64,000 bases of DNA from positions 64,834-128,833 of the forward strand of contig CAKPSB010000002.1 of the NCBI GenBank assembly GCA_934183155.1, read 5' to 3'. The notes beneath the pieces are model-generated. The model was not told the DNA's origin and searched no databases. It saw only the letters and a program-made list of their open reading frames with translations. This document shows, piece by piece, positions 1-16,050 of this stretch. The stretch is from an uncultured Bacilli bacterium. GTDB lineage: Bacteria > Bacillota_I > Bacilli_A > RF39 > UBA660. The position numbers were made by a program, and so were the translations under genes. Each line of letters starts with the position of its first letter. Within the stretch, counting starts at the first letter, position 1.

Positions 1-13
1 AATTGCTTTTTAT

Positions 14-421
14 ATGATAAATGCAGGCACTGAAACACAAGAATTAAAACTTGGCAAAGTATCACCAGACAGTAAAGAAAAATACTATATTATAAATGTT
101 TCCAATTACAATGAAGCTAAAATAAGCGAAGTAGATATGACATATAATTTATCAATTAAAACAACAACCAATATCCCTGTTTCATATAAATTATATTTAA
201 ACGATAATACAGAAAATATCATTGGAACAAAACAGTTAATCACAGATAAAGATAATATGTATTTTTATAAATATAATAGTATCTCATCAGAGTTTAATAA
301 AAACATAAAAAAAACTGACAAATATAAATTAGCTATTAGTTTCGATGAAAAATATTCAGATGAAACATATCAAAGTTTAATCGATAGTGTAGAAATAACA
401 GTTACGGCAAAACAAAAATAA
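14..421 (+). CDS. hypothetical protein; the frame is open to the window start, so this is probably the C-terminal part of a larger secreted protein
   Basis: ORF in the six-frame track; its frame stays open back to nt 2; β-rich composition with no recognisable catalytic motif. Confidence 0.3.
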   Translation: MINAGTETQELKLGKVSPDSKEKYYIINVSNYNEAKISEVDMTYNLSIKTTTNIPVSYKLYLNDNTENIIGTKQLITDKDNMYFYKYNSISSEFNKNIKKTDKYKLAISFDEKYSDETYQSLIDSVEITVTAKQK

Positions 422-514
422 AAAAATTGTAAAGTATACAAATTTTTAAAAGCTTCACTTGCAAGTTTTGTCGAAACATGATAATATCATAATAGAAGAG
501 TAAGGAGAAAAAAT

Positions 515-1528
515 ATGACAAAAAATAATAAAAAGAAAAAGAAACAAAGACGATTATTATTAGCAATATATGCTCTAATAGGAACAGCTGCCCTATTAGG
601 AACAGCAACTTATGCATGGTTTACTGCTAATAAGACTGTTTCTGTTAACCCAATTGACGTTAACGTAACAGCTAAAAGTGGTTTACAAATATCAGCTGAT
701 GGACAAAATTGGAAATCAATTTTAACAAATACTGATATAACAGGAGCAAGCGGAAATTATAAAGCAGCTGTAAACCAAATTCCAAACACATTGGAACCAG
801 TTTCATCAGTTGGAACAATTGATACAACTGGTAAAATGGAAATGTTCTTAGGAACAGTAACTGCAAATGATGAAGGTAACTGGATTCTAAGTTCTACAAA
901 ATCTACTGAAACAAACGCTTCAGGAGATGCCTCAACAGGTGCATTTGTAGCATATGACCTATTCCTTAAATCTGAAACAGCTACTAAAATTTATTTAGGT
1001 GCTGATTCTAAAATCGTATTTGCTGATGCAAAAGATACTGGTATCAAAAATGCTACAAGAGTTGGCTTCGTAACATTAGGACATACTACAAGTGATGATA
1101 CTATTGCTAACATTCAAGGATTAAATACCGGAACATCTTCAACAGTTAAAATTTGGGAACCAAATTATGATGTACATACTTCATTCGGTGTTGCTAATGC
1201 CCGTGACACATATGCTATTAATACATTAACTGCCGCTGCAGGTAACGCAGCAGTAGCTTATGATGGAATTAAAGCTACCTTTGATAAAGCCGCTGGAATT
1301 ACTTTAGGTAATGCTAAACAAGCATCATTTGCTGACTACTTCAAAACTGTAACTCCAGATATTAAAACACCAGAAACTAATACTGATAGTAATGAACTTG
1401 TTGATTTAGAAGCCGGAGTTACAAAAATCAGAGTTTATATGTGGATTGAAGGACAAGATGTCGACTGTGAAAACAATGCATCAGGTGGAAAAATTTCATT
1501 CAGTTTAAAAATGAGCACAGAAGCTTAA
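515..1528 (+). CDS. TasA/camelysin-like secreted protein with a SipW-cognate-type signal peptide
   Basis: N-terminus is K-rich, then a hydrophobic stretch, then 'GTATYAWFTAN', which resembles the TasA 'GTWAAFND' SipW-cognate motif; RBS AAGGAGA upstream; terminator downstream. Confidence 0.5.
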   Translation: MTKNNKKKKKQRRLLLAIYALIGTAALLGTATYAWFTANKTVSVNPIDVNVTAKSGLQISADGQNWKSILTNTDITGASGNYKAAVNQIPNTLEPVSSVGTIDTTGKMEMFLGTVTANDEGNWILSSTKSTETNASGDASTGAFVAYDLFLKSETATKIYLGADSKIVFADAKDTGIKNATRVGFVTLGHTTSDDTIANIQGLNTGTSSTVKIWEPNYDVHTSFGVANARDTYAINTLTAAAGNAAVAYDGIKATFDKAAGITLGNAKQASFADYFKTVTPDIKTPETNTDSNELVDLEAGVTKIRVYMWIEGQDVDCENNASGGKISFSLKMSTEA

Positions 1529-1572
1529 AAATAGTATAATTATTGATATATATTTAATAAATACAAATATTA

Positions 1573-1600
1573 GAGTGATTTTTATCACTCTTTTATAATG
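1573..1600 (+). terminator. rho-independent terminator
   Basis: AGAGTGAT-tttt-ATCACTCT hairpin followed by a T-tract. Confidence 0.6.
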
Positions 1601-1764
1601 CCTTTTATTAAATTATCAATTTAATAAAATAAACACTTGTGCGGTTTAGAATAATCAAGTAAAATGTATATCTTTTTTGAAAAAACGAACGCTTATTAAA
1701 AACAATTGGTTGATAAAAAGATAACAAATTTAGGCAACAATCATACAATATTTTAGGTGATAAA

Positions 1765-2148
1765 ATGAACAATTTAAAAGTCGTAATCGACGCAGGACAT
1801 GGAGGCACAGATAGTGGTGCGGTAAGTGGAAATGTAAAAGAAAAAGATTTAACGTTAATGATTTCAAAATATATGCTTGAACAATTTAAAAATAAAGGAA
1901 TAGATTCTACCTTAATTAGAAATACAGATGAAAGTATTTCACCAGCTGAAAGAACAAAAAGAATATTAGATGCCTATGGTGATAAGTCCAATGTTATAAT
2001 AATTTCTAATCACATTAACGCATCTGGTGCGAATGGTAAGAATGTAGGCAAAGCAAGTAGTGTCTTGTTTGCTTTAAAACAAAAGAATTTTGGCTCAATG
2101 TTGAAATTCTTTTTTTGTATATCGTTAAAAAGTTTGTTTCGTAGTTAA
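1765..2148 (+). pseudogene. 5′ fragment of an N-acetylmuramoyl-L-alanine amidase gene (Amidase_3) interrupted by the integrative element; host-derived sequence ends near 2030, after which the reading frame runs into element DNA
   Basis: 'VVIDAGHGGTDSGA' and 'HINA' Amidase_3 motifs are present; the catalytic Glu region (GAEVY) is missing here and appears at 11731-11740 in the same frame after the GGTGC core. Confidence 0.65.
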
Positions 2149-2212
2149 TATATGAAGAATAATCGTAATAATTTGACATTTTTATAAAAAAATTACTCTG
2201 TATCGTAATAAA

Positions 2213-2241
2213 TTGACAAAAATTAAATATAGTATTATAAT
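2213..2241 (+). promoter_or_regulatory. consensus sigma-A-type promoter (TTGACA-17-TATAAT) driving the cargo genes
   Basis: TTGACA at 2213-2218, 17-nt spacer, TATAAT at 2236-2241; preceded by two direct copies of ATCGTAATAAWTTGACA at 2162-2178 and 2202-2218. Confidence 0.5.
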
Positions 2242-2267
2242 GTATATATAAGAAAGGAAGATGGATT

Positions 2268-3464
2268 ATGGTTATTCGTGAAAGATATTTAAAATTAATA
2301 AGACCATTTTATGATCAAGAGTTAATTAAAGTGTTAATTGGTATTAGACGTTCTGGAAAATCAGTTATTTTAAAACAAATAATAGATGAGCTAAAAGAAA
2401 ATAATGTTGATGATAATCATATTATCTATATTAACTTTGAAGATTACGATTATGAGGAATATACTGATCCTAAAAAGTTAAACAATTATGTTAAAGAAAG
2501 AATAATTGATGATAAAAAATATTATATATTCTTTGATGAAATTCAAAATGTTGATAAATGGGAAAAAGTTGTTAATTCATTAAGAGCAACAAAGAACACA
2601 TCTATTTTTATAACTGGTTCTAATAGTGATTTATTATCTAGTGATTTAGCAACCCATATTGCAGGAAGATATGTTAGTTTTAAAATAACTCCATTTACAT
2701 TTGATGAAGTTTGTAAATTATTAAATATTACAGATAATAGAGATATTGAAGATGCATTTAATGATTATATTAAATGGGGTGGAATGCCACAAAGATTTAT
2801 GCAAAAAGATGACATTTCAAGAAAAACTTATTTAAATGATATTTATGATTCAATAATAATAAAAGATATCGTAAAAAGATTTAATATTAAAGATATTGAT
2901 TTGTTAAATAGAATAGTTACTTATATTTTAACTACTCCATCTCAAGTATTTTCACCTGATAGTTTAAAAAAATATATGCAAAGTGATTCTAGAAATGTAT
3001 CATTAGAAACATTATATAATTATCTTGATTATATAACTCGTGCAAACCTTATTTCAAAAGCAGAAAGATATGATGTTAGAGGTAAAAGAATTCTTACAGG
3101 TAAATATAAATATTATTTAACTGATTTAGGTTTTACTAATATTTTAAGTGAAGGTAAGAAAGAGCAAATAGGTGCTTATTTAGAAAATATTGTTTATAAT
3201 GAACTAATTGCTAGAGGATATAGTGTTAATATTGGTACATTAGAAAATGGTGAAATAGATTTTATAGCAACAAGGTTCAATGAAAAAATATACATTCAAG
3301 TTACTTATATTTTAAGTGATGAAACAGTAATTGAAAGAGAATTTAATGCTTATAAAAAGATTGAAGATAACTATCCAAAATATGTTCTTTCAATGGATAA
3401 ATTTGATTTATCACAAAATGGAATAATTCATAAAAATATAATTGATTGGTTGTTAAAAAAATAA
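2268..3464 (+). CDS. AAA-family ATPase of the DUF4143 (COG1373) type
   Basis: Walker A 'GIRRSGKS', Walker B 'IFFDEIQ'; characteristic C-terminal DUF4143-like region; RBS GAAAGGAAG. Confidence 0.7.
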   Translation: MVIRERYLKLIRPFYDQELIKVLIGIRRSGKSVILKQIIDELKENNVDDNHIIYINFEDYDYEEYTDPKKLNNYVKERIIDDKKYYIFFDEIQNVDKWEKVVNSLRATKNTSIFITGSNSDLLSSDLATHIAGRYVSFKITPFTFDEVCKLLNITDNRDIEDAFNDYIKWGGMPQRFMQKDDISRKTYLNDIYDSIIIKDIVKRFNIKDIDLLNRIVTYILTTPSQVFSPDSLKKYMQSDSRNVSLETLYNYLDYITRANLISKAERYDVRGKRILTGKYKYYLTDLGFTNILSEGKKEQIGAYLENIVYNELIARGYSVNIGTLENGEIDFIATRFNEKIYIQVTYILSDETVIEREFNAYKKIEDNYPKYVLSMDKFDLSQNGIIHKNIIDWLLKK

Positions 3465-3586
3465 TACAAAAACATGGAATTTCAAATAATTAATTTGATT
3501 AAAGATATATTTTAATTATTAATTAAAATGACATCATGTAATTAAAATGACATCATGTATTTATTTCTATAAGGAGTTGGTTAGAA

Positions 3587-5695
3587 ATGGCAAATAAAAA
3601 TACAAATTTACAAAATGCTAAAAATAAAAAAGATGATGAATTTTATACAACATATGAGGATATCGAAAAAGAAATAATAAATTATAAGATACATTTTAAA
3701 AACAAAACAGTATTTTGTAATTGTGATGATCCATTTGAATCTAACTTTTGCAAGTATTTTTTGAAAAACTTTAATGTATTGGAAATAAAAAGATTAATAT
3801 GTACATCATACTATTCTTCTAAAATTATATCAAAAGAATTAAATTTCTTAAAAAAAGGTGAAAAAAAGTCTAGAACTAAAGGATACGTATTAGATATACA
3901 AAAATTTGTAGATACAAAAGAAGTAATATCAGATGATGTAATTTGTAATTTATTAAAAGAATCAGGCAATATAAAAGAATTAAAAGGTACAGGAGACTTT
4001 CAAAGTGATGAATGTTTAAACTACTTGAAAGAATCAGATATAGTCGTAACTAATCCACCATTTTCTTTATTTAGAGAATTTGTCTCTATTATCATGAAAT
4101 ATAAAAAGAAGTTCTTAATTGTTGGTAATCAAAATGCACTAACATATAAAGAAATATTTCCGTTGATAAAGAATGATGAATTATGGACTGGGTATCAGTT
4201 TGGAGAGATGAAATTTAGAGTGCCCAAAACTTCTAAACCTAGAACTACAAGATACTGGGTTGATGATACAGGACAAAAATGGAGAAGTTTAGGAAATGCA
4301 ATGTGGTTAACAAACATAGATAATGAACGAAGGCATAGAGAAATTAATTTAACAAAAAAATACAATTCAAAAGATTACCCAAAATATGATAATTTTGATG
4401 CAATAAATGTAAAAACAATAAATGACATACCATATGATTACTTTGGTATTATGGGAGTACCAATAACTATTATAAATAGGTATAATAGTGAGCAATTTGA
4501 AATTGTTGGAGAAGCTAATCATGGTTCTGATAATGAATATGATTTATTTAAACCAGTTTTAAATGGAAAGGAATTATATAAAAAAATATTGATTAGAAGA
4601 AGGTGTAAAGAAGTGAAAGAAAAAGAATTTGTTATTTTAGACTTATTTAGTGGTGCAGGTGGTTTTTCTTATGGTATGGAAAAAAACAAACATTTTAAGA
4701 CTGCTATTGCGTTAGATATAAATGAATCTGCACTAAAAACATTTAAACACAATATGCCAAATACAACAACAGTTTTAGGTGATATTACTAATGAAGAAAT
4801 AAAACAAAAAATTATTAAATTAAGCAAAGAGAAAAAGGTTAATATGATTATAGGTGGACCACCATGTCAAGGTTTTTCACTAAAAGGGAAAAAATTAGGA
4901 TTAAGTGATCCAAGAAATTTTTTATTTAACGAATATTTGAATATAGTTGAATCAATTAGACCAGAAGTGTTTGTGATAGAAAATGTAAAAGCATTATTGT
5001 CTACATCATCAGGATGGTTTAAGGAACAAATAATAAATAGAGTAAAAAGTATGGGTTATTATGTTGATTGTGGAATTTTGACAGCATCGGATTTTGGCGT
5101 ACCACAATCTAGACAAAGAGCTATATTTATTTGTTCAAAAAACAAAAAAATTGAATTGCCAACTATACAAAAAAGAAAAAAGGTGACAATTAGAGATGCG
5201 ATATTTGATTTGGCATATTTAAATTCTGGCGATGGAGAATTTGAACAAGAATATATAACATCGCCTATAAGTTCATATCAAAAACTTATGAGAAAAGGAA
5301 GTGTTAAATTATATAATCATAAAGCCTCTAATCATTCTGAGGTTGCAATAAAAAAACTTCAAATGATCCCACCAGAATGTGGTAAAGAACATTTGCCAAA
5401 GGAAATGCTTGGAAAACAAAAATTTAGTGGGACATGGGGGAGATTAAAATGGGACGATGTTTCTCCAACAATTGATACAAGATTTGATGCTTCATCGAAT
5501 GGGACAAATAATCATCCGTTTTTAAACAGGGCAATTACACCAAGAGAAGCGGCTAGAATTCAATCTTTTGACGATAAATTCGTTTTTTTAGGTACAAAAG
5601 TTTGTGTAAGAGAACAAATCGGTAATGCTGTGCCACCTTTATTGGCAAAAGCAATTGCTGATAAAATATATAATGAGATAGGAGTGGAATTATGA
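3587..5695 (+). CDS. bifunctional DNA methyltransferase: N-terminal M.EcoRI-family N6-adenine MTase domain fused to a C-terminal C5-cytosine (Dcm-type) MTase domain
   Basis: N-terminal half carries 'DDEFYTTYEDIE', 'CNCDDPFESNFCKYF' and 'DIVVTNPPFSLFREF', the M.EcoRI-family hallmarks. C-terminal half carries C5-MTase motifs I 'LFSGAGGFS', IV 'GGPPCQGFS', VI 'ENV', VIII 'QSRQRAIF' and X 'GNAVPP'. Confidence 0.8.
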   Translation: MANKNTNLQNAKNKKDDEFYTTYEDIEKEIINYKIHFKNKTVFCNCDDPFESNFCKYFLKNFNVLEIKRLICTSYYSSKIISKELNFLKKGEKKSRTKGYVLDIQKFVDTKEVISDDVICNLLKESGNIKELKGTGDFQSDECLNYLKESDIVVTNPPFSLFREFVSIIMKYKKKFLIVGNQNALTYKEIFPLIKNDELWTGYQFGEMKFRVPKTSKPRTTRYWVDDTGQKWRSLGNAMWLTNIDNERRHREINLTKKYNSKDYPKYDNFDAINVKTINDIPYDYFGIMGVPITIINRYNSEQFEIVGEANHGSDNEYDLFKPVLNGKELYKKILIRRRCKEVKEKEFVILDLFSGAGGFSYGMEKNKHFKTAIALDINESALKTFKHNMPNTTTVLGDITNEEIKQKIIKLSKEKKVNMIIGGPPCQGFSLKGKKLGLSDPRNFLFNEYLNIVESIRPEVFVIENVKALLSTSSGWFKEQIINRVKSMGYYVDCGILTASDFGVPQSRQRAIFICSKNKKIELPTIQKRKKVTIRDAIFDLAYLNSGDGEFEQEYITSPISSYQKLMRKGSVKLYNHKASNHSEVAIKKLQMIPPECGKEHLPKEMLGKQKFSGTWGRLKWDDVSPTIDTRFDASSNGTNNHPFLNRAITPREAARIQSFDDKFVFLGTKVCVREQIGNAVPPLLAKAIADKIYNEIGVEL

Positions 5696-6567
5696 ATATA
5701 GAAATGGCATATTTAATTGGAATGATATTAGGCAATGGAGAAATTCAAAAGGGTAATCACGAAACAATTGTAACTATTGATATACCACATAAAAATTTAT
5801 ATACTGACGATTTTAAGGATGTAAAAATATATGTAAAAGCTAGTATTACTGATATACGAGATATTGTTGAACCACTTATTGGAAGCAACTTAAAACTTAC
5901 ACAGGAAGATAGATCAACTATAATTTCTTTTGTTAAACCGAATGAAGAATATGTAATGAGGCAAATACTGAAATTTGTTGGAAATGGTCGTAAACATTCA
6001 ACTATGGAAATGAATCCCGATTTATTTAGTATGACAAGTGATGAAAAAAAATCATTGCTTAGAGGTATTGCGGATGTTACAGGATATATTAGAAAAAGTA
6101 ACATTGCTTTTGGACAAGAGGGAGCTCATAGAGTGTACATTGAAATTCCGTGTAATTGGAAAATGGTTATTGATATTGCAAACATGTTAAAAGACGTTGA
6201 TATTCCAATTCAAACAATAGATTTTGGACATCCTAATTTTAGAGATAGTAATTTAATAAAGTATAATGAAGGTATGCCTAATTATTGGAAAAAAGAGCAT
6301 CAAATTAAAATATATGCAAATGAATTTTTACCAATTGGGTTTAATATAAAACATAAACAAGAGGCTTTAGAAAAATATAGTGATGAACTTTTAAAACATC
6401 TTAATCCAGAAAAGACTCATAAATATTATTGGGAAAAAAACATAAAGAAAGGTAAAGAAAAGTTAAAACATCCAGGTGAAAATGACCCATCCTTACCTAA
6501 GGAAATACGGGGAAAACATTTTAATTCATGGACAGAGTTAGCAAGGGTATTGGGTTATGATAAATAA
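5692..6567 (+). CDS. hypothetical protein translationally coupled to the methyltransferase (ATGA overlap); candidate restriction/effector component
   Basis: Start overlaps the MTase stop. Two weak LAGLIDADG-like segments ('LIGMILGNGE', 'LRGIADVTG'). No secure family assignment from sequence alone. Confidence 0.35.
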   Translation: MNIEMAYLIGMILGNGEIQKGNHETIVTIDIPHKNLYTDDFKDVKIYVKASITDIRDIVEPLIGSNLKLTQEDRSTIISFVKPNEEYVMRQILKFVGNGRKHSTMEMNPDLFSMTSDEKKSLLRGIADVTGYIRKSNIAFGQEGAHRVYIEIPCNWKMVIDIANMLKDVDIPIQTIDFGHPNFRDSNLIKYNEGMPNYWKKEHQIKIYANEFLPIGFNIKHKQEALEKYSDELLKHLNPEKTHKYYWEKNIKKGKEKLKHPGENDPSLPKEIRGKHFNSWTELARVLGYDK

Positions 6568-7054
6568 TGTTTCTAAAGAAATTGAATTGTATGAGCCAAT
6601 GAGAAAATGGTTGCAAAAATATTTAGAGGAAAAGTATAAAAATGCTGAAGTAATAACTATTGATTCACATGCTAGAACTTTAGATTCATATTTGAATCAA
6701 TTTGGCTTGCTTGATCAATATCCTCTAACTGTTGGGCTAGACATTCAGGTAGATGTTTTAGGTATAGTAAAGTACAAGAATAGTACTAATCTTATTTTCA
6801 TTGAGGCAAAAAAGACGCAACTTAATCTTCATGATTTGGGACAATTATGGGCTTATTGTAAGTTGTGTGATCCTCTTGAGGCCTTTCTACTATCATCATA
6901 TGGATTGGGAAGTTTAAACAAATTATTCAATAATTTATTGAGAGATGATTTATTAGATTTTGGTGATGGTAAAAAGATTAAAAAAATGCAAGTTGGGAAG
7001 TGGAATATTATAACTAACAATATAGATTATAATTCGTTAATTCCTAAAATTTAG
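6557..7054 (+). CDS. small PD-(D/E)xK nuclease-fold protein (putative)
   Basis: 'GLDIQVDVLG…IFIEAKK' fits the D…(D/E)xK restriction-endonuclease-like pattern; overlaps the upstream gene by 11 nt. Confidence 0.4.
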   Translation: MINNVSKEIELYEPMRKWLQKYLEEKYKNAEVITIDSHARTLDSYLNQFGLLDQYPLTVGLDIQVDVLGIVKYKNSTNLIFIEAKKTQLNLHDLGQLWAYCKLCDPLEAFLLSSYGLGSLNKLFNNLLRDDLLDFGDGKKIKKMQVGKWNIITNNIDYNSLIPKI

Positions 7055-7092
7055 TAGTTATACTATTACATGGATGAGGTAGGAGATGAAAT

Positions 7093-9234
7093 ATGGAATT
7101 ATTTTTAAAAAAAGTTGAAAACGCATTTGGAATTAAAAGTTTACATTTAAATTTGGAAAATGATAAGAAAATGTATCAAGAATTAATATATTCTAAAAAT
7201 GGTTCTTTTAAAACTTCTTTTTCAAATACTTTATATAATTTAAGTAATGGTACGTTAGAAAATGTATTTGATAGATTAACAGATGAAAAAGCTATTTTAG
7301 ATATATCTATTTTAGAAAATGGTAAAGAAATAAAAAATTTTGACAATCGATTTGTTGTTTTTTCTAGAGAAATATATGAACAGCATTCTAAATTATTGTC
7401 TGATTATAGTTCTGAATTAGAGACACTTACTATCGATAAAAAAAATAGTGAATATATAAATGAATTATTAACTGAGGAAACTATAGAAATCAAATTACAG
7501 ATTGATAATTATTTAAAAGGTACTGGTTTAAACTTTGAAATATTACTTGATATGTTTTCTAATTTAGAAGATGGATACTTAGATAGAATAATTCAATTAC
7601 TGAATACAATTATTAATCATGAAGCTCAAGACATTAGTGAAATAAATATAAAAAAAATATATCAGAAAGCATATGATATTGTTGATCAGAGCGAATTTCA
7701 AAGCAAAATATCAAATTACATTCAGGTATTAGAAAATAAAATTAATGCTCAACTTTTTGACAAAAATTTTAACGAAAATAATTGCTTACAGTTTATAAAT
7801 AATGTTGATAAAGCAAAATATTTATCAGAAACAAAATCTAGGGGCTTATTTTTAAAAGATAAAGTATACTATGATATTGACGAAGTAAAAAAAATATTTG
7901 AAGAAGAAATTAAAAAAATATCAAAAGACCCTGAAATAATTGAACAAAGTAAAGAAATTACTAAATTAATGGGAACTGCTAAAGAATCTGAGTTTTTAAA
8001 AGAATCAATTCAAAAAAACCCTTTGCTTGTTAAACAGTTATCTGCTGGTAGAAAAAATATTCTTTTATCATATTTAAAATCTTCAAGTATAGATTACAAT
8101 TATTGGTTAGAAGTTGTAAAAAAAGCAAAAAAAGAATTAAATAATGTTTTAAAAATTGCGCAGGATAAACAAACGAATTTTGAACGTGCAATTGAAATAT
8201 ACAAAAATAGATTTCATCCAATTTTTGACATCAAAATAGTTAATAAGGCAGAGTCCATGTTAGGCATAAAAACTCCTACTATTACTTTTTATCATAATAG
8301 ATATTGTGAGATTCCTGTCTCAGAAACAAAATTAAGCCAAATTTTATCTTCTGGAGAAAAAACAACGCTTAATATATTAAAATTTATAGTTGAATATGAA
8401 AATTGCAAAAAATATCACCCATTTATAATTTTAGATGATATCGTAGAAACTTTTGATTATTCCAATCGCTATGCTTTTATGGAATACATAAATGATTTAG
8501 TAAATTTGGATGTTCCAACAATTGTTATGACGCATAATTTTGAATTTTATAGAACAGTTAGTAAAAGAATACCAAAATTAAGAAAAAGTGTTGCATCTGC
8601 CAACTCTAACGGCGTTGTAGATATTCAAACTAATAATCGAATTAACAAAAACATGGAAAATGTTTTAAAGTGCTCAAATATTTATGATTTCTTTTGTGCC
8701 ATTCCATATTTAAGAGAAATTAAAACAATTTTATTGGAAGACACCAAAACATTAGATTCGTGCCTTCATTACAAAGAAAACACTTCTAAATTACAAATTA
8801 AAGATATATTATTACAATTTCCAAGTAATGCTATAAAAAGTCTTAAAATAGATGAAAATGATATTTACATGGAAAAGTTGTTTGAAATAGCAGACAATTT
8901 ATCTGGATTTGATGATTTTGATATTGTAAAAAAAACAATTTTATCACTTTCTTGCAGACTTTTAATAGAAAGAAAAATAATTGCAAACAATTTTAATTTA
9001 TTAACTAATATTAATACGAATCAAACTGCACAGCTTCTTGATTTATACGGTGAAAAGTTATTTCCAAATGTAAAAAAATATCTTGAAGCAGTACAGTTAT
9101 CAACACCTGAGTTTATTCATGCTAATGCATTTATGTATGAACCATTAATTGACATAAATGGAAAATACTTGTTTGAATTATATAATCAAATTAAAAAAAT
9201 ACCTGATGAAAAAATATGGAAAAATAAAAATTAA
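7093..9234 (+). CDS. SMC/RecF/ABC-fold ATPase with a long coiled-coil-like insertion, a degenerate Walker A and an uncharacterised ~230-aa C-terminal domain (defence-associated)
   Basis: N-terminal 'SKNGSFKTS' (degenerate GxxxxGKT); signature-like 'LSSGEKTTLNIL'; Walker B/D-loop 'FIILDDIVETFD'; H-loop 'IVMTHNF'. Confidence 0.5.
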   Translation: MELFLKKVENAFGIKSLHLNLENDKKMYQELIYSKNGSFKTSFSNTLYNLSNGTLENVFDRLTDEKAILDISILENGKEIKNFDNRFVVFSREIYEQHSKLLSDYSSELETLTIDKKNSEYINELLTEETIEIKLQIDNYLKGTGLNFEILLDMFSNLEDGYLDRIIQLLNTIINHEAQDISEINIKKIYQKAYDIVDQSEFQSKISNYIQVLENKINAQLFDKNFNENNCLQFINNVDKAKYLSETKSRGLFLKDKVYYDIDEVKKIFEEEIKKISKDPEIIEQSKEITKLMGTAKESEFLKESIQKNPLLVKQLSAGRKNILLSYLKSSSIDYNYWLEVVKKAKKELNNVLKIAQDKQTNFERAIEIYKNRFHPIFDIKIVNKAESMLGIKTPTITFYHNRYCEIPVSETKLSQILSSGEKTTLNILKFIVEYENCKKYHPFIILDDIVETFDYSNRYAFMEYINDLVNLDVPTIVMTHNFEFYRTVSKRIPKLRKSVASANSNGVVDIQTNNRINKNMENVLKCSNIYDFFCAIPYLREIKTILLEDTKTLDSCLHYKENTSKLQIKDILLQFPSNAIKSLKIDENDIYMEKLFEIADNLSGFDDFDIVKKTILSLSCRLLIERKIIANNFNLLTNINTNQTAQLLDLYGEKLFPNVKKYLEAVQLSTPEFIHANAFMYEPLIDINGKYLFELYNQIKKIPDEKIWKNKN

Positions 9235-9642
9235 TGGTTAAAAAACAATGTTTTTTTACATAATTTTGTCATTTTCGTTTACTTAATAACGTTCTCTTTT
9301 TTGACATTGACTTCTAATTTATTTACGATATAATTATTATAATATAGCAATAGTTCTAGGATATGAACTATTAGATGCTAAAATACTATATTCAGTTTAT
9401 GAGTATAGTATTTTTTTGTAAGGAGGAATTGTTATCTAAAATTATATAAACAAAAAGTATGTACCAAGAAATTATAAAAAAATAAATAATTAAGGTACCT
9501 AAAAAAGTTGGTTTATGTGTGAAAAGAGGTTCATAATTAGCAATTTTGTTAATCCAAAAGTATGTCATTTGTATAACCGTTTGTGTGTCTAACTGCTATT
9601 TTTGATACAAAATTTGCTATTTTTAGTTAACCCAATAGTATG

Positions 9643-9746
9643 ACATTTATTTTAATGTATGACAAAGTAGTCTTTCACAATCCCTTTAAAATAGGGCTAA
9701 ACTCCCCACTGGGAAGTTGTTTGTCAGCCATCCTTATCCTGCTAAA
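9643..9746 (+). ncRNA. candidate structured RNA/DNA element inside the island's non-coding region (function unknown)
   Basis: Locally GC-rich. Outer inverted repeat TGACAAA…TTTGTCA encloses two hairpins (CCCT-ttaaaat-AGGG and TCCC-cact-GGGA). No ORF. Confidence 0.25.
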
Positions 9747-9924
9747 AACAAACACGCGGAATATTTAGAAAATTAGAGAATTAAAGTCATAAGTTATGTA
9801 CCCAATTTTATATAAAAACAATAAAAAAATTTATTAAGGAGGAGTGATTTATAAGATGTAAAAGTAATATAAATTTAAGTTTTAGGAATATATTTAAGTA
9901 TGAAACCAAAAGGGGTAGATTGGT

Positions 9925-10110
9925 ATGATAATAACTGAAACTTTTAAAAATGGTGGTAAAGATATTGGGGCTTTATTACAAGAATATGTATGCTTAATAC
10001 TTAAATATAAAGATGAAAATGGTAAAATAGATGACACAAATGATGGTAAGAGAGTTATAATGGAATCGGCAAACAAGATGCTATGCAAAAGAAAGGAGAA
10101 TAATGTATAG
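9925..10110 (+). CDS. small hypothetical protein overlapping the recombinase start; possible accessory or directionality factor
   Basis: 61-aa ORF preceded by GGGG RBS-like sequence; stop overlaps the recombinase ATG. Confidence 0.25.
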   Translation: MIITETFKNGGKDIGALLQEYVCLILKYKDENGKIDDTNDGKRVIMESANKMLCKRKENNV

Positions 10111-11677
10111 CACAGTAAAACCGCCATCATTTTATAATGTAGGAATATATATAAGATTATCGCAAGAAGATGAGGATAAAGCACATAAAAGAGAGTCTGA
10201 AAGCGAAAGTGTATTAAATCAAAGAAGTTTACTTATGAACTTTTTGAGGGATAATGGATTTGTTTTAACTGATGAGTATGTTGATGATGGATATTCAGGT
10301 ACTAACTTTGATAGACCAGCATTTAAAAGATTACTTGAAGACATAGAAAAAGGAAAAATAAATTGTGTCATAACTAAAGACTTATCAAGATTAGGTAGAG
10401 ATTATATCAAATGTGGTTATTATATAGAACAATATTTTCCATTAAAGAAAGTTAGATATATATCTATACTAGATAATGTAGATACTTTTCTAGATTCTGC
10501 AAATAATGATATAGCACCTTTCAAAGCTTTATTTAATGATATGACTAGTAAAGATACATCAAAGAAAATAAAATCAATATTAAGAGATAAAAAAGTGAAA
10601 GGTAAGTTTATAGGTAGTAAACCCAGTTTTGGCTATATGAGAGATCCACTTGATAAAGGACATCTAGTGCCAAACCCAGACACAGCATGGATAGTAAAAA
10701 GAATATTTAATGAAGTATCAAGAGGAGATAAAATATCAGATATAATTGAAAGATTAAATAATGAGAATATTCCAACACCAAGTGCATATAAACAAATAAA
10801 AAAATCAAAAAGACAAATAAATGGATATATTTGGACTTGTAGTACGATTAACAAAATATTAAAAAATAGAATGTATACTGGTGATATGATTCAAAATGTT
10901 CAGACAAAATTAAACTATAAATCACAAAAGAGAATATGTCTTTCTAGTGAATATTGGATAATTGTAGAAAATACTCATGAACCATTAGTAAATAGGGTAA
11001 TATTTAATCAAATACAGACAAGTGCTAATAGAACTAGAACAGTAAAATTAAACCGTCCACAGAGGCTATTAGAGGGCTTACTTTATTGCAAAGAGTGTGG
11101 TAATAAGCTAACGGTTAGTTATAGGGAAAAGCGCAATTACTGGTCTATAAATTGCAATAAATATTCTAGAAGTCCAAGACAAAGATTATGTGAACCACAT
11201 TTTTCAGAATATAATAGTTTTGAAAAAATAATTTTAAATCAAATCAAAAAAACTTGTAAAAAATATATAGAAAAAGTTGACATTGATAGTTTAGTATCTA
11301 ATATAAAAAGTGAGAAGGATAACAAGGAAGATTTGATTATAGAAAAACAAAAATTAGAAAGTAATATCAAAGAACTACAACTAAAAATAGATGCTTTATA
11401 TGAAGATAAATATAATGGGATAATCTCAGTTGATACTTATACAAGATTATCTTCTAATACAGAAAATCTAATAAGAACATACAACTCTAGAATAAAAGAA
11501 TTAGAAAATTCTATTAATGAAGTTCCTAAAAAACATAATGATGAAGAAATAAAACAAAAAATAAAAGAATTAATTAGTATGAAAAAACCTACTAGAGAAT
11601 TATTATTTATACTAGTAGATAAAATAATTGTTGATAAAGATAAAAATGTAGAAATAATATATAATTTTAATAAATAA
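10103..11677 (+). CDS. large serine recombinase (resolvase/invertase N-terminal catalytic domain, recombinase domain, zinc ribbon and coiled-coil)
   Basis: 'VGIYIRLSQED', 'YVDDGYSGTNFDRPAFKRLLEDI', 'ITKDLSRLGRD', Cys-rich 'CKECGNKL…C' zinc ribbon, C-terminal coiled-coil; 524 aa. Confidence 0.85.
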   Translation: MYSTVKPPSFYNVGIYIRLSQEDEDKAHKRESESESVLNQRSLLMNFLRDNGFVLTDEYVDDGYSGTNFDRPAFKRLLEDIEKGKINCVITKDLSRLGRDYIKCGYYIEQYFPLKKVRYISILDNVDTFLDSANNDIAPFKALFNDMTSKDTSKKIKSILRDKKVKGKFIGSKPSFGYMRDPLDKGHLVPNPDTAWIVKRIFNEVSRGDKISDIIERLNNENIPTPSAYKQIKKSKRQINGYIWTCSTINKILKNRMYTGDMIQNVQTKLNYKSQKRICLSSEYWIIVENTHEPLVNRVIFNQIQTSANRTRTVKLNRPQRLLEGLLYCKECGNKLTVSYREKRNYWSINCNKYSRSPRQRLCEPHFSEYNSFEKIILNQIKKTCKKYIEKVDIDSLVSNIKSEKDNKEDLIIEKQKLESNIKELQLKIDALYEDKYNGIISVDTYTRLSSNTENLIRTYNSRIKELENSINEVPKKHNDEEIKQKIKELISMKKPTRELLFILVDKIIVDKDKNVEIIYNFNK

Positions 11678-11730
11678 AAGGTTAGTTAATACCTGCCTAC
11701 ATTCCACGACTTCGGGGGAGGAGAAGGTGC

Positions 11731-12661
11731 TGAAGTAATATACGCTTTAAGAGATAATAGTAATTTAGCAAAAAATATATTAACCTCATTAGGAAATGCT
11801 GGCCAAAAAATGAGAAAATATTTTCAAAGAAGATTACCAAGTAATACATCAAAAGATTATTACTTTATCCACAGAAATACAGGTCAAAATACAAAACCAG
11901 TAATTGTAGAATATGGTTTTATTGATAATCCTAAAGATTTAGCAAAAATTCAAGAAAATTATAAAAAATATGTTGATGCAGTGGTTGATGCAGTCATAAA
12001 AACTTATGAAGGTAAAACAATAGAAAACTTACCATCAAATGGAAAATATTATACAGTAAAAGCAGGCGATAGCCTATGGAAAATCGCTAAAGAAAATAAT
12101 ACAACAGTAGATGAAATTAAAAAATTAAATAACTTAAAATCCAACAATTTAGTAGTCGGTCAAACATTAAAATTAAGTGAAAAAACAAATGACAGCGATA
12201 AATATATTGTAATGAGTGGCGATAGTCTATGGAAAATCGCCAACCAATATGGTCTTACCGTAAATCAGTTAAAACAATTAAATAATTTAACAAGCGATAA
12301 TCTAGAAATTGGCCAAGAATTAAAAATAAAAAACAATATGGCAAAAGATGAGACAAATATATATACAGTAAAAGCAGGCGATAGTCTATGGAAAATTGCA
12401 AGCCAATATGGTCTTACCGTAAATCAGTTAAAGCAATTAAATAATTTAACAAGTGATAATTTAGAAATTGGCCAAAAGTTAAAAATAAAAAACAATATAT
12501 CAAAAGATGAGACAAATATATATACAGTAAAAGCAGGTGATAGTCTTTGGAATATTGCAAACAGATTCAAAACAACTGTTAATGAATTAAAAAAGTTAAA
12601 TAATTTAACTAACAATTATTTAACAATAGGACAAACATTAAAAATTCCAACTACCGATTAA
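11731..12661 (+). pseudogene. 3′ portion of the interrupted amidase gene: remainder of the Amidase_3 domain plus four LysM repeats. The amidase frame is open upstream through element DNA from 11690 (stop codon at 11687-11689); the six-frame-track ORF starts at an internal ATG at 11810
   Basis: 'GGGEGAEVIYALRDN…', 'YYFIHRNTGQNTKPVIVEYGFIDNPKD'; four LysM motifs 'YTVKAGDSLWKIA…'. Confidence 0.65.
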
Positions 12662-12666
12662 ACAAA

Positions 12667-13710
12667 TTATTCAATATTTTTAACAAGGTCAAATTTATAT
12701 CCTTGTTTTTTCATATTATTTATAAAAGAATCCAAAGCAAGATAATTACCTTTATTCTTAGGATGCATCAAATAAATTGCACCTCTGTGAGCTCTTATAG
12801 TAAGCTCATTTAAAGCTTTTTCCTTAGTAACATCATCTTCAAAATCCAAATAATCAGCACTATAAAAATAAGTTTTATACCCCAAATCCTTCATTATTTG
12901 AAGAGTTCTAAAGCTCCATTCACCCCGAGGCTCCCTATAAATTTTTTCCATTTGCTTGCCAGTTGCCTTATTATATGTATCCTCTACGCTAACAATCTCT
13001 TCTAAATATTTATCAAAATTTTCCTTGTTTGCCAAAGAAGGCATAGACAAATGTCGAGAAGTATGATTAGCAATAGTATGTCCCATCTCATCCATTTGCT
13101 TAATCAAAGTAGCATTATCTTCAATAAATTTTCTACATAAGAAAAAAGTAGCCTTGACATTATTTTTGTTTAAAACATCAACTATTTCCTTCAAATACGT
13201 ATCATTACTGCCCTCATCAAAAGTTAAATATAAAGTCTTTTCATCCGGCCCCATAAAAAAGGCATTAAATTTTTTAAGTTCATTAATATCAGCTCCACCA
13301 GAAGGCCTCTCACCATTTTTTTTATTATTACTCCACCAACCCCTTAAAGTATTATCAATATCATCATACTCGTCTTTATAAATAGGCAAATTGTTTGCAA
13401 TAACCTTTATAAATCTATGCGCCTTAGCAATTTCTCCTTCTTTATTTGTAACAAAATATATTAATTCATAAGTTCCTTCTTTACTTAAAACTTTTCCCTT
13501 AATCCTTACCTTATCAGTAAGATCACCATTATCATCATAAGCTTTAAAACCAGCCTCTTCATATTTTTCATTCAAATTAATAGTCACAATATGTTGACCA
13601 TTTAGTATTATTTTAGGAACAGTTGACGTGCTTTTTGTAAATTTTGAGTAAATAAAAAAACTAGCAGAGGCAAAAAAAACAATATAAATAATAAACTTTT
13701 TTTTCACCAA
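12667..13710 (-). CDS. membrane-anchored polysaccharide deacetylase (NodB homology domain; peptidoglycan/chitooligosaccharide deacetylase family)
   Basis: 'LTFDEGSND', 'HTIANHTSRH', N-terminal TM anchor. Confidence 0.75.
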   Translation of the reverse strand: MVKKKFIIYIVFFASASFFIYSKFTKSTSTVPKIILNGQHIVTINLNEKYEEAGFKAYDDNGDLTDKVRIKGKVLSKEGTYELIYFVTNKEGEIAKAHRFIKVIANNLPIYKDEYDDIDNTLRGWWSNNKKNGERPSGGADINELKKFNAFFMGPDEKTLYLTFDEGSNDTYLKEIVDVLNKNNVKATFFLCRKFIEDNATLIKQMDEMGHTIANHTSRHLSMPSLANKENFDKYLEEIVSVEDTYNKATGKQMEKIYREPRGEWSFRTLQIMKDLGYKTYFYSADYLDFEDDVTKEKALNELTIRAHRGAIYLMHPKNKGNYLALDSFINNMKKQGYKFDLVKNIE

Positions 13711-13808
13711 ATCACCCTATAAAAGCATATGTAAACAAGCAAAATATAATACATCATATTGCACTTTATTTTTATTTAATATATAATCAAAGTAGGAGAT
13801 GATGGGGC

Positions 13809-15179
13809 ATGAAAATAACAAAAAAAATAAATCCAGATATTTTCAGAGAATACGATATCAGAGGAATCTACGGTACTGATTTAAATGAAGATGTAGCATA
13901 TACCATAGGAAAAGCCTTTGGCAGCTTTGTTCGTGACCTTGGAGAAAGTAAAGTAGCATTAGGTCATGATAATCGAGCAAGCCATAGCGAGCTTTATCCA
14001 GCTCTAATGCAAGGAATACTAGATAGCGGAATTAATGTGCTAAGCCTAGGACTTATTACAACGCCAATGCACAATTTTGCCAAAATACACTATAACGTTA
14101 ATGCCGGTATAATGGTTACCGCAAGTCATAACCCAAAAGAATATAATGGTTTTAAAATGTCAGTAGAAAAAGAAAAATCACTTTATGCCGATGAATTAAA
14201 ATCATTTAAAAGTTACTTAGAATGTTATGATTTTTATGATGGGGAAGGTTGTGTAATAGAAGAAGACATAATGCCAGCCTATATTCAAAACATAAAAAAG
14301 TCATTAAACTTTGGCAATAAAAAAGTGAAAGCCGTTATTGATTGTGGAAATGGAACCGGCAGCATTTTTATTGAAAATATTTTAAAACAATTTAATATTG
14401 AATATAAACTTTTATACTGCGAAAGTAATTCCGATTTTCCAAATCATATTCCAGATCCAGCCGTTAAAGAAAATATGAAAGATTTAGGAAAAAAAGTCAA
14501 AGAACTTGGATATGACATTGGACTTGCTGTTGATGGAGATGCCGATAGATGTGGCATGGTTTTAGAAGACGGGACATTTATCTCAGCCGACTTAATTATG
14601 CTTATATTTTATCGTAGCTTAGCCAGTACCATGGAAGTGCGCAAAGGCGTATTCGATGTTAAATGTTCTAAAACCTTAATCGATGAAATAGAAAAATTAG
14701 GATTAGAGCCAATAATGAATAGAACCGGCAGTGTCTATTGTCGTGACTTTGTAGCCGAAAATAATTTAAGCTTTGGGGGTGAATACTCCGGACATCTATT
14801 CTTTAGAGATCGTTACCTAGGTTTTGATGATGGAATTTATGGTATATTAAGAATGCTAGAAATAATGTCAAAGACAGAAAAAAAACCGAGTGAACTACTC
14901 GCCAACATTAATAAATATTTTTCAACCGACGAAATAAAAATAAAAGTTACTGATGAAAATAAGTTTGAAATTGTCAAAGGGGTTATAAAATATGCCAAAG
15001 AAAAAAAATATAACTACAGCTTAGTCGATGGAATCAGAGTAACATTTTCCGATGGCTTTGCCTTAGTTAGAGCCAGTAACACAGGCCCTAATTTAACTGT
15101 TAGATATGAAGCAAGCAGCGGTAAAAGACTTAGTGAAATACAAAAAGAGTTTAATTCAGTGATAGAAAAATTAAAATAA
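13809..15179 (+). CDS. phosphomannomutase/phosphoglucomutase (alpha-D-phosphohexomutase family)
   Basis: 'FREYDIRGI', active-site 'TASHNP', 'GDGDADR' metal-binding loop. Confidence 0.85.
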   Translation: MKITKKINPDIFREYDIRGIYGTDLNEDVAYTIGKAFGSFVRDLGESKVALGHDNRASHSELYPALMQGILDSGINVLSLGLITTPMHNFAKIHYNVNAGIMVTASHNPKEYNGFKMSVEKEKSLYADELKSFKSYLECYDFYDGEGCVIEEDIMPAYIQNIKKSLNFGNKKVKAVIDCGNGTGSIFIENILKQFNIEYKLLYCESNSDFPNHIPDPAVKENMKDLGKKVKELGYDIGLAVDGDADRCGMVLEDGTFISADLIMLIFYRSLASTMEVRKGVFDVKCSKTLIDEIEKLGLEPIMNRTGSVYCRDFVAENNLSFGGEYSGHLFFRDRYLGFDDGIYGILRMLEIMSKTEKKPSELLANINKYFSTDEIKIKVTDENKFEIVKGVIKYAKEKKYNYSLVDGIRVTFSDGFALVRASNTGPNLTVRYEASSGKRLSEIQKEFNSVIEKLK

Positions 15180-15227
15180 ATTATATAGTATTGAAATCAA
15201 TAATAAAATATTATATAATTTCTATAT

Positions 15228-15301
15228 GCCGCAATAGTATAAAGGTATTACGAGGCCATGGTAAGGCTTTAATCGGCGTTCAATTCGCCGTTGCGGCACC
15301 A
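15228..15301 (+). tRNA. tRNA-Thr (anticodon GGT)
   Basis: Folded by hand. Acceptor GCCGCAA/TTGCGGC + A + CCA; anticodon stem AGGCC/GGCTT with loop ATGGTAA; T-arm CGGCG-TTCAATT-CGCCG. Confidence 0.75.
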
Positions 15302-15312
15302 TAATGATAAAA

Positions 15313-15338
15313 TCGTCACCAAAAGTGACGTTTTTTTA
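15313..15338 (+). terminator. rho-independent terminator after the tRNA
   Basis: CGTCAC-caaaa-GTGACG followed by TTTTTTT. Confidence 0.6.
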
Positions 15339-15372
15339 AAAAATAAACTATAAAATGGAAGGCGGAAAAAGC

Positions 15373-16050
15373 ATGTATAAACTAATATTAGTAAGGCACG
15401 GACAAAGCGTATGGAATTTAGAAAATAAATTTACAGGATGGACCGATGTAGATTTGTCAAAAAAAGGAATAGAAGAAGCCAAAGAAGCCGGTCAAAAACT
15501 AAAAAAAAATAATCTCCACTTTGATCTAGCCTATACCTCATATTTAAAAAGAGCACAAAACACATTAAAAATAATTCTAAATGAATTAGGTGACAGTCCA
15601 ACTATAAAAAAAAGCTATAAACTAAATGAAAGACATTACGGAGCCTTACAAGGTTTAAATAAAGCAGAAACAGCCAAAAAATATGGCGATGAGCAAGTAA
15701 AATTATGGCGAAGAAGCGCCAAAGTAAGACCACCAAAACTTTCATTAGATGATCCAAGATATCCAGGTAACGATCCACTATATGATGGAATAAAAAATCT
15801 ACCAGTTTGTGAAAATCTACTTGACACCGTAAAAAGAGTAGTAGAATATTATAAAGAAGAAATAAAGCCCAATTTAAAAAATCATCAAATAATTATAGTT
15901 GCCCACGGTAATAGCCTAAGAGGACTTATTAAATATTTAGATAATATTTCTGATGAAGATATTGTTAAACTAGAAATTCCAACAGGAAAGCCACTTTGTT
16001 ATGAACTAGACAACAATCTAAAACCTATAAAACATTATTATATTGATTAA
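15373..16050 (+). CDS. gpmA: 2,3-bisphosphoglycerate-dependent phosphoglycerate mutase
   Basis: '[24 protein letters not shown]' histidine-phosphatase signature; start chosen at MYKLIL after the GGAAGGCGG RBS. Confidence 0.9.

Follow-up and report, generated by a model that had tools for sequence, protein, structure and literature searches.

The window analysed here, a stretch of 64,000 nt from an uncultured Bacilli bacterium (contig CAKPSB010000002.1, GC content 28%), carries at positions 7093..9234 a gene for an ATP-binding cassette (ABC) ATPase with a deviant P-loop, in which a Phe residue precedes the Walker A lysine. The open reading frame of 713 codons starts with ATG, and an AGGAG-type ribosome-binding site is located 8 nt upstream. 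The gene and its parts, delimited with the help of AlphaFold2 (AF2) models and of sequence conservation, are as follows (pLDDT, predicted local distance difference test; SMC, structural maintenance of chromosomes).

7093..9234, forward strand: complete gene of a PDC-S46-family ABC ATPase, 713 aa (open reading frame; full-length PADLOC and PHROGs matches)
7093..7374, forward strand: residues 1-94, ABC N-lobe with beta strands and the P-loop helix (AF2 pLDDT ~88-93; Foldseek matches to Rad50/SMC heads)
7192..7218, forward strand: residues 34-42, deviant Walker A motif S34-K-N-G-S-F39-K40-T41-S42 (family logo, PrrC control, AF2)
7375..8217, forward strand: residues 95-375, insert domain, predicted bundle of short helices with a small beta element, poorly conserved (AF2)
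8218..8574, forward strand: residues 376-494, ABC C-lobe with signature motif, Walker B/D-loop and H-loop (invariant columns; hhalign to PrrC)
8422-8457, forward strand: Walker B/D-loop of the ABC C-lobe, ILDDIVETFDYSN (invariant columns)
8575..9231, forward strand: residues 495-713, C-terminal all-alpha domain, family-specific (AF2; conservation; no match outside the family)

A preliminary description of this gene, made from the sequence, had reported the P-loop as S-K-N-G-S-F-K-T-S, which was confirmed at residues 34-42. The remaining ABC motifs are also present as quoted there, namely the signature motif LSSGEKTTLNIL with the core LSSGE (residues 418-429, nt 8344-8379), the Walker B/D-loop FIILDDIVETFD (residues 444-455, nt 8422-8457) and the H-loop MTHNF (residues 479-483, nt 8527-8541; also given as THNFEF). 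As detailed below, that observation was confirmed in part and its interpretation is partly supported. The same 713-aa protein is encoded by 57 contigs, and many further contigs carry variants that are nearly identical. A sequencing error or a pseudogene is ruled out by these 57 contigs together with the invariance of the motif in the family.

By its profile matches the gene belongs to the PADLOC family PDC-S46, an already catalogued defence candidate that the preliminary description had missed. The PDC-S46 hidden Markov model (HMM; PDLC05023) matches the protein over its full length (residues 6-703 against positions 6-718 of 719, E=1.5e-98), and it is likewise matched by 25 of 25 diverse relatives (best E=4e-255). 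A full-length match was also obtained in PHROGs (phrog_38705, function unknown). Among Pfam models only SMC_N was found, with 31 bits below the 40-bit cut-off, and NCBIfam gave no match to the 713-aa protein. More typical members of the family pass or come close to AAA_13, the Pfam model of PrrC/RloC-type ABC proteins. It is matched at E≤1e-3 by 6 of the 25 members, and P0160 scores 56.6 bits, above the cut-off of 36. After PDC-S46 the next PADLOC relatives are PDC-S06, mad8 and mad3 of MADS, and AbiLi, all with weak E-values. A profile search over 1.84 billion cluster representatives (clusters at 50% identity) yielded 1372 proteins at E≤1e-3, of which 612 reach E≤1e-30; nearly all have a length of ~720 aa and align from end to end. 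The family covers Firmicutes, Mycoplasmatota, Proteobacteria, Bacteroidota and Leptospira as well as plasmids and phages. In the databases the homologues are named 'hypothetical protein', 'AAA family ATPase' or occasionally 'phage infection protein'.

For the analysis of the P-loop 140 diverse representatives from this search, down to ~25% identity, were aligned. Position 39, directly in front of the Walker A lysine, is occupied by Met in 110, Phe in 28, Leu in one and Thr in one of them, and by Gly in none; thus Met or Phe precedes Lys in 138/140 family members. Around this position Y33, N36 and K40 are conserved to 100%, G37 to 99% and S42 to 98%, and position 34 holds Ala in 125 and Ser in 15 sequences, which gives the family consensus Y-[A/S]-x-N-G-x-[M/F]-K-[T/S]-S. 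Among the close homologues the N-terminus is readable in 119, each of which carries Y-S-[KR]-N-G-x-F-K-T-S, and in 18 homologues, down to 48% identity, the residues Y33, S34, N36, G37, F39, K40, T41, S42 and F43 are invariant. No homologue with a canonical GK[ST] was found among the 140. The replacement of Gly by Met or Phe is therefore a fixed, family-wide trait.

According to the preliminary description both Walker A glycines are replaced. This holds for the Gly before Lys, which is normally invariant and the most conserved glycine of the P-loop, and it is the Phe at this place that sets the protein apart from the canonical pattern [AG]-x4-G-K-[ST]. For the first position, at which the family has mostly Ala, the statement goes too far. 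Ala at the first Walker A position fits the classical pattern. PrrC proteins, of which 84 distinct metagenomic sequences recovered via the motif FIDDPVSSLDDNH served as a control, have Ala at this position as well. All 84 read Y-A-F-N-x-x-G-K-T, most commonly Y-A-F-N-G-T-G-K-T, with Gly before Lys in 84/84, in agreement with the published PrrC P-loop AxxGxGKT (PMC3025547). Compared to these sequences, the PDC-S46 consensus Y-A-P-N-G-T-M-K-T differs only at the Gly before Lys.

The rest of the nucleotide site is strongly conserved. The residues Lys40, Ser/Thr41, Ser42, S419, G421, E422, D448, D449, F454, D455, Y456, N458, H481 and N482 show 96-100% conservation, compared to a mean column identity of 34% in the family, and the motifs LSSGE, ILDD, TFD and THN are invariant. 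Because of this difference the site is probably still in use, and the inactivated ATPase considered in the preliminary description is unlikely. The conservation pattern argues for a selected variant of the P-loop and not for a decayed site.

A rival reading is a pseudo-ATPase, in which Met or Phe would abolish nucleotide binding. The head would then serve only for dimerisation or as a scaffold, or would sense a phage protein or nucleic acid, and the work would be done by the remainder of the protein. In 140/140 sequences the Gly before Lys is missing, and substitutions of this residue, e.g. Ras G15A, strongly reduce nucleotide affinity. Furthermore, the pLDDT of the AF2 model drops to 78 at the P-loop compared to ~90 in the flanks. 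Dead sites, however, normally decay at several motifs, whereas here Lys40, Thr/Ser41, Ser42, Ser419/Gly421/Glu422, Asp448-Asp449, the D-loop and His481 are essentially invariant at ~25% identity, and the restriction of position 39 to Met or Phe suggests a selected role and not a relaxation of constraint. We therefore regard a pseudo-ATPase as unlikely.

The AF2 model of the full protein (pLDDT 81; predicted template modelling score, pTM, 0.50) forms an ABC head from residues 1-94 and 376-494. In it the P-loop retains its geometry of strand (30-34), loop and helix (38-51). Heads of Rad50, Smc2, cohesin and condensin were the top matches of a Foldseek search against the PDB (E=1e-6 to 1e-4), in line with an SMC/Rad50-type ABC fold and thus with the SMC/ABC fold assigned to the gene beforehand. 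Between P-loop and signature motif lie ~376 residues, close to the ~380 residues of K/E-rich, probable coiled coil described earlier. The K/E enrichment of this middle region is mild (23.5% vs 19.8% in the whole protein), but the long coiled coil found no support, as the insert is predicted, at a pTM of 0.50, to consist of ~15 helices with a maximal length of 25 residues and a small beta element. A coiled coil with a hinge or hook is thus unsupported. The invariant columns of the family contain no conserved Cys pair or CxxC zinc hook in the insert, and Pfam searches with the insert returned weak noise only.

The C-terminal domain was modelled alone with an alignment of 32 sequences. The model (pLDDT 89, pTM 0.85) is all-alpha following a beta-hairpin. 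It was described earlier as a domain without an obvious homologue, and indeed none is detectable outside the family for these ~220 aa: neither Pfam (E≤10), nor a sequence profile search of the PDB, nor Foldseek against the viral structures of BFVD gave a match, and a search with the C-terminal profile returned fragments of the same family only and no other architecture. The structure prediction and structural search proposed for this domain thus yielded a folded domain without a match, and no non-defence family was hit. Family-wide invariant residues are R541, H559, K614, R622, E626, Q644, T671, H676, N678, E683, P684 and D687. Such invariant polar residues are typical of a catalytic or ligand site, and from the chemistry of these residues alone a metal-independent nuclease is the best guess. 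The domain is the putative effector part of the protein.

The preliminary description had placed the protein in the class of Lamassu LmuB or of RloC/PrrC. By its motifs the ABC head is PrrC-like. Both proteins combine an N-terminal ABC NTPase with a unique C-terminal domain in one polypeptide and are frequently linked to restriction-modification (RM) genes. They share the motif style Y-A-x-N-G-x-?-K-T (IYAxNG..KT), a Walker B motif with DD at its end, a D-loop of the form S-x-x-D behind which an Asn is conserved, and a T-H-N..F-Y H-loop with a subsequent beta-hairpin. In hhalign comparisons the segment comprising Walker B, D-loop, H-loop and beta-hairpin was aligned to PrrC with a probability of 86.6% and the signature region with 59%; the P-loop segment matches by eye and is statistically not significant. 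A further likeness is R-x3-E in a long C-terminal helix (R622/E626, compared to R320/E324 of PrrC) along with a late invariant His. The nuclease activity of PrrC depends on His295, His315, Arg320, Asn321, Glu324, Arg349, Asn352 and His356 (PMC3025547). On the other hand, PrrC has ~400 aa, no large insert, a Gly before Lys, the HEPN motif R349-x6-H356 and the residues His295/His315, and its RM partner is of type Ic (hsdMSR locus), in contrast to the fused type II-like methyltransferase and the two orphan genes found here. The PrrC-type motifs (YAxNGxGKT, FIDDPVSSLDDNH, THN) are common to both in style, but the protein has a replaced Gly, an insert of 280 aa and no PADLOC match to PrrC. Since PrrC was also not matched by any of 25 relatives and the C-terminal profiles and architectures differ, membership in PrrC was rejected, and what remains of this assignment is the architecture of an ATPase with a unique C-terminal domain and the style of the motifs.

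RloC resembles the protein in the large insert between the ABC halves, the C-terminal non-ATPase domain, the stand-alone gene and the affinity to AAA_13. Its long antiparallel coiled coil, its CxxC zinc hook and its Arg-Glu-His/HEPN signature are not seen in the protein, and no RloC HMM match was obtained in 25 relatives. The assignment to RloC was thus discarded on HMM, motif and architecture. LmuB, JetC, DndD, PtuA, GajA and AriA are Rad50/SMC-class ABC ATPases of defence islands too, but in ATPases of this type the GK[ST] is canonical and the effectors are separate partners (LmuA, JetD, PtuB, the Toprim domain of GajA, AriB), for which no conserved counterpart exists here. For LmuB itself PADLOC gave no match at E≤0.1 with the protein and a match of one in 25 relatives (E=0.0026). 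As an LmuA-like neighbour is also missing, the assignment to LmuB was likewise rejected. Relative to the characterised systems the protein would represent a variant of the ABC ATPase-effector type with a new P-loop feature, within a large candidate family.

The ATPase gene is located 39 nt downstream of a block of co-oriented genes:

3587..7054, forward strand: upstream co-oriented block (Pfam and PADLOC matches for the methyltransferase; orphan genes without match)
3587-5695, forward strand: fused EcoRI-like N6A and C5 DNA methyltransferase, 702 aa (Pfam, PADLOC)
5692-6567, forward strand: orphan gene, 291 aa, overlapping its neighbours
6557-7054, forward strand: orphan gene, 165 aa, overlapping the upstream gene

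The 291-aa and 165-aa proteins had no match in Pfam, NCBIfam, PADLOC, PHROGs or the PDB. From their position they are probable restriction components, and presumably represent one or two type II restriction endonucleases that are new. The 19-nt unit TAATTAAAATGACATCATG is present in two perfect tandem copies in the intergenic region (3520-3557), the second of which ends 30 nt before the start codon of the methyltransferase gene. They may be an operator or regulatory site of the RM operon. The block of four genes (methyltransferase, 291 aa, 165 aa, ATPase) is kept in L001, L002, L003 and L009; the ATPases of the latter three loci are ~80% identical to the protein and have the type II RM genes upstream. 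Beyond this close clade the 291-aa and 165-aa genes are absent. In further relatives the neighbourhood is different (BREX, bacteriophage exclusion):

L006/L007, relatives with 36% identity: N6_N4 methyltransferase and Eco57I-like RM fusion
L008: SF1 helicase-DUF2726 and DEAD/MZB helicase
L138: FokI RM and AbiH
L140: BREX operon in the order BrxC, PglX, AbiH, 238-aa protein, ATPase, PglZ, BrxL
L142: ATPase between two HEPN-MNT pairs
L143: Mob_Pre/serine-recombinase element
L013: unrelated genes
Plasmid matches: accessory regions of conjugative plasmids

In L140 the relative (P0230, 7001-9208) is situated inside a type 1 BREX operon, between PglX and PglZ and together with AbiH and the 238-aa unknown protein. 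The pairing of AbiH and PDC-S46 may be recurrent (L138, L140). The defence context proposed for the gene is thus borne out by RM genes here and by BREX, AbiH and HEPN-MNT neighbours in independent lineages. Because no partner gene is conserved across the lineages compared, PDC-S46 fits a single-gene module which is repeatedly lodged in defence loci.

The position of the gene could also indicate an accessory subunit of the adjacent RM system, e.g. an ATP-dependent translocase or a regulator. It is co-oriented with the block, follows it after 39 nt without a predicted terminator (the scan itself performed at chance level), the four genes stay together at ~80% identity, and RM genes are found upstream in the relatives with 36% identity too. 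The neighbouring types, however, vary by lineage (type II fusion methyltransferase, Eco57I-like, FokI, BREX), many members have no RM neighbour (plasmid-borne, toxin-antitoxin-flanked, L013), and the two orphan genes do not extend beyond the close clade, which makes such a subunit improbable.

The gene and the upstream block are parts of a larger element:

2065..11697: mobile element, 9.6 kb (split amidase gene; nucleotide identity to L001; GC content)
2268-3464, forward strand: PDC-S01 candidate, ATPase with AAA_14 and DUF4143 (PADLOC E=6e-150; Pfam)
10103-11677: large serine recombinase at the right end of the element

The element interrupts an N-acetylmuramoyl-L-alanine amidase gene (Amidase_3 and four LysM domains), the parts of which flank it at 1765-2148 and ~11700-12661. 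The amidase frame breaks between '...SNHINASGANG' and 'GEGAEVIYALRDNS...', within the HxNAxG...GxE motif. A second copy of the element, with 97.8% nucleotide identity, was found in another metagenome-assembled genome of Bacilli (L001), in which the flanking amidase/LysM genes show only 45-52% protein identity to the flanks in the window. The GC content of the element is 25.4% compared to 28.5-29.7% in the flanks. The high identity of the element compared to its flanks and the GC contrast therefore identify it as a horizontally mobile, site-specific element with defence cargo. The ATPase gene is cargo of this serine-recombinase element, along with a type II RM module and PDC-S01. It is reminiscent of a small integrative defence island, or of the intervening elements of the skin type that are known from sporulation genes. 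No attachment-site repeats were found at its ends. Their absence is expected for serine recombinases.

The data are best explained by a mobile PDC-S46-family protein that acts alone and is a candidate for defence against phages or plasmids. In it a sensor ATPase gated by nucleotide would be fused to an effector. We assign this explanation a probability of roughly 0.55. In analogy to PrrC, RloC and OLD-type proteins two heads would dimerise head-to-tail around nucleotide. The bulky Met or Phe would shift the affinity or specificity of the P-loop in such a way that the switch is thrown solely on an infection cue. Candidates for this cue are an altered nucleotide pool and a neighbouring RM or BREX system that has failed. 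The resulting conformational change would license the C-terminal domain as a toxic effector, possibly a metal-independent nuclease acting on RNA, and lead to abortive infection. The system would serve as a back-up to RM or BREX.

Several points weigh against this explanation. A side chain at the position of the Gly before Lys usually weakens nucleotide binding, and binding and hydrolysis of nucleotide by the protein are hypothetical. The most conserved segment of the C-terminal domain (671-688) is predicted as a loop of low confidence, and it could equally be an interaction surface. The domain matches no nuclease significantly: in the Foldseek search against the PDB its best probability was 0.21, for the HEPN toxin HepT (5yep_C, 6m6w; E=4.5). 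The HEPN motif Rx4-6H is absent, since no Arg is found 4-6 residues before H559 or H676, and the hhalign probability between the C-terminal profile and that of the 84 metagenomic PrrC proteins is 0.6%. A HEPN or PrrC-like label for the C-terminal domain is therefore unjustified.

The 145 PDC systems are candidates that Payne et al. (2024, bioRxiv 10.1101/2024.01.29.577857) defined by their location within loci of BREX, DISARM (defence island system associated with restriction-modification) or type I RM. The window protein shows no family-level difference from PDC-S46, one relative of which resides in a BREX operon as in this definition. As a further counterpoint, the PDC systems are called untested by Payne et al. 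(2024), and 'PDC-S46' is not mentioned in the literature searched, including the supplements of that study. The same literature contained no PDC-S46 defence phenotype, no biochemistry and no description of the deviant P-loop or of the C-terminal domain.

A bolder version of the candidate defence protein is conceivable, though doubtful. The Met/Phe P-loop would then be a functional innovation and define a new subclass of ABC NTPase switches, whose ligand specificity is altered (towards dNTP, GTP or a signal that is phosphorylated) or which close only when triggered. Together with an effector of an undescribed nuclease or toxin fold it would form a new system of abortive infection, encoded by a single gene and serving as back-up to RM and BREX.

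Very improbable, finally, is a housekeeping or mobile-element maintenance SMC-like protein (repair, partition, stability or addiction) without a role in immunity: its structural matches are Rad50/SMC heads, the family resides on plasmids and integrative elements and some RefSeq names are generic ('AAA family ATPase'), but the AF2 model shows neither a hinge nor a long coiled coil, partners such as Mre11/SbcD, ScpAB or a kleisin-like protein are missing nearby in the loci examined, and the family is patchy across phyla, recurs in RM, BREX and abortive-infection islands and matches the HMM of a defence candidate. Pseudo-ATPase, RM subunit and maintenance protein all fit the pattern of conservation and the variety of contexts less well than the sensor ATPase with a fused effector.

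Fusions of an ABC ATPase and an effector (PrrC, RloC, OLD, Gabija, PARIS) are a recurring logic of bacterial immunity, and the sensing of infection by them is poorly understood. The difference to the PrrC P-loop at a single position provides a clean, testable handle on the tuning of a defence switch by its P-loop. The C-terminal domain may be a new effector fold, and if the family is indeed defensive, PDC-S46 would turn from a candidate into a system.

Some minor features of the element and its surroundings were also recorded. A perfect sigma-70 consensus promoter (12/12) is located at 2213-2241, just upstream of the PDC-S01 gene. The promoter and terminator scan performed at chance level and is uninformative on operon structure. 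Between the ATPase and the recombinase gene lies an AT-rich stretch of 870 nt (9235-10102) with no convincing gene, whose only open reading frame has 61 aa (9925-10110). This stretch may contain the recombinase promoter, a directionality factor or attachment-site sequences; a search of Rfam with positions 1-16000 of the window, which include it, gave no matches. In L013 an intact Amidase_3 gene (10226-10906) directly adjoins the ATPase gene of a relative with 50% identity (P0112), which points to amidase genes as favoured neighbours or integration sites of such elements in these Bacilli.

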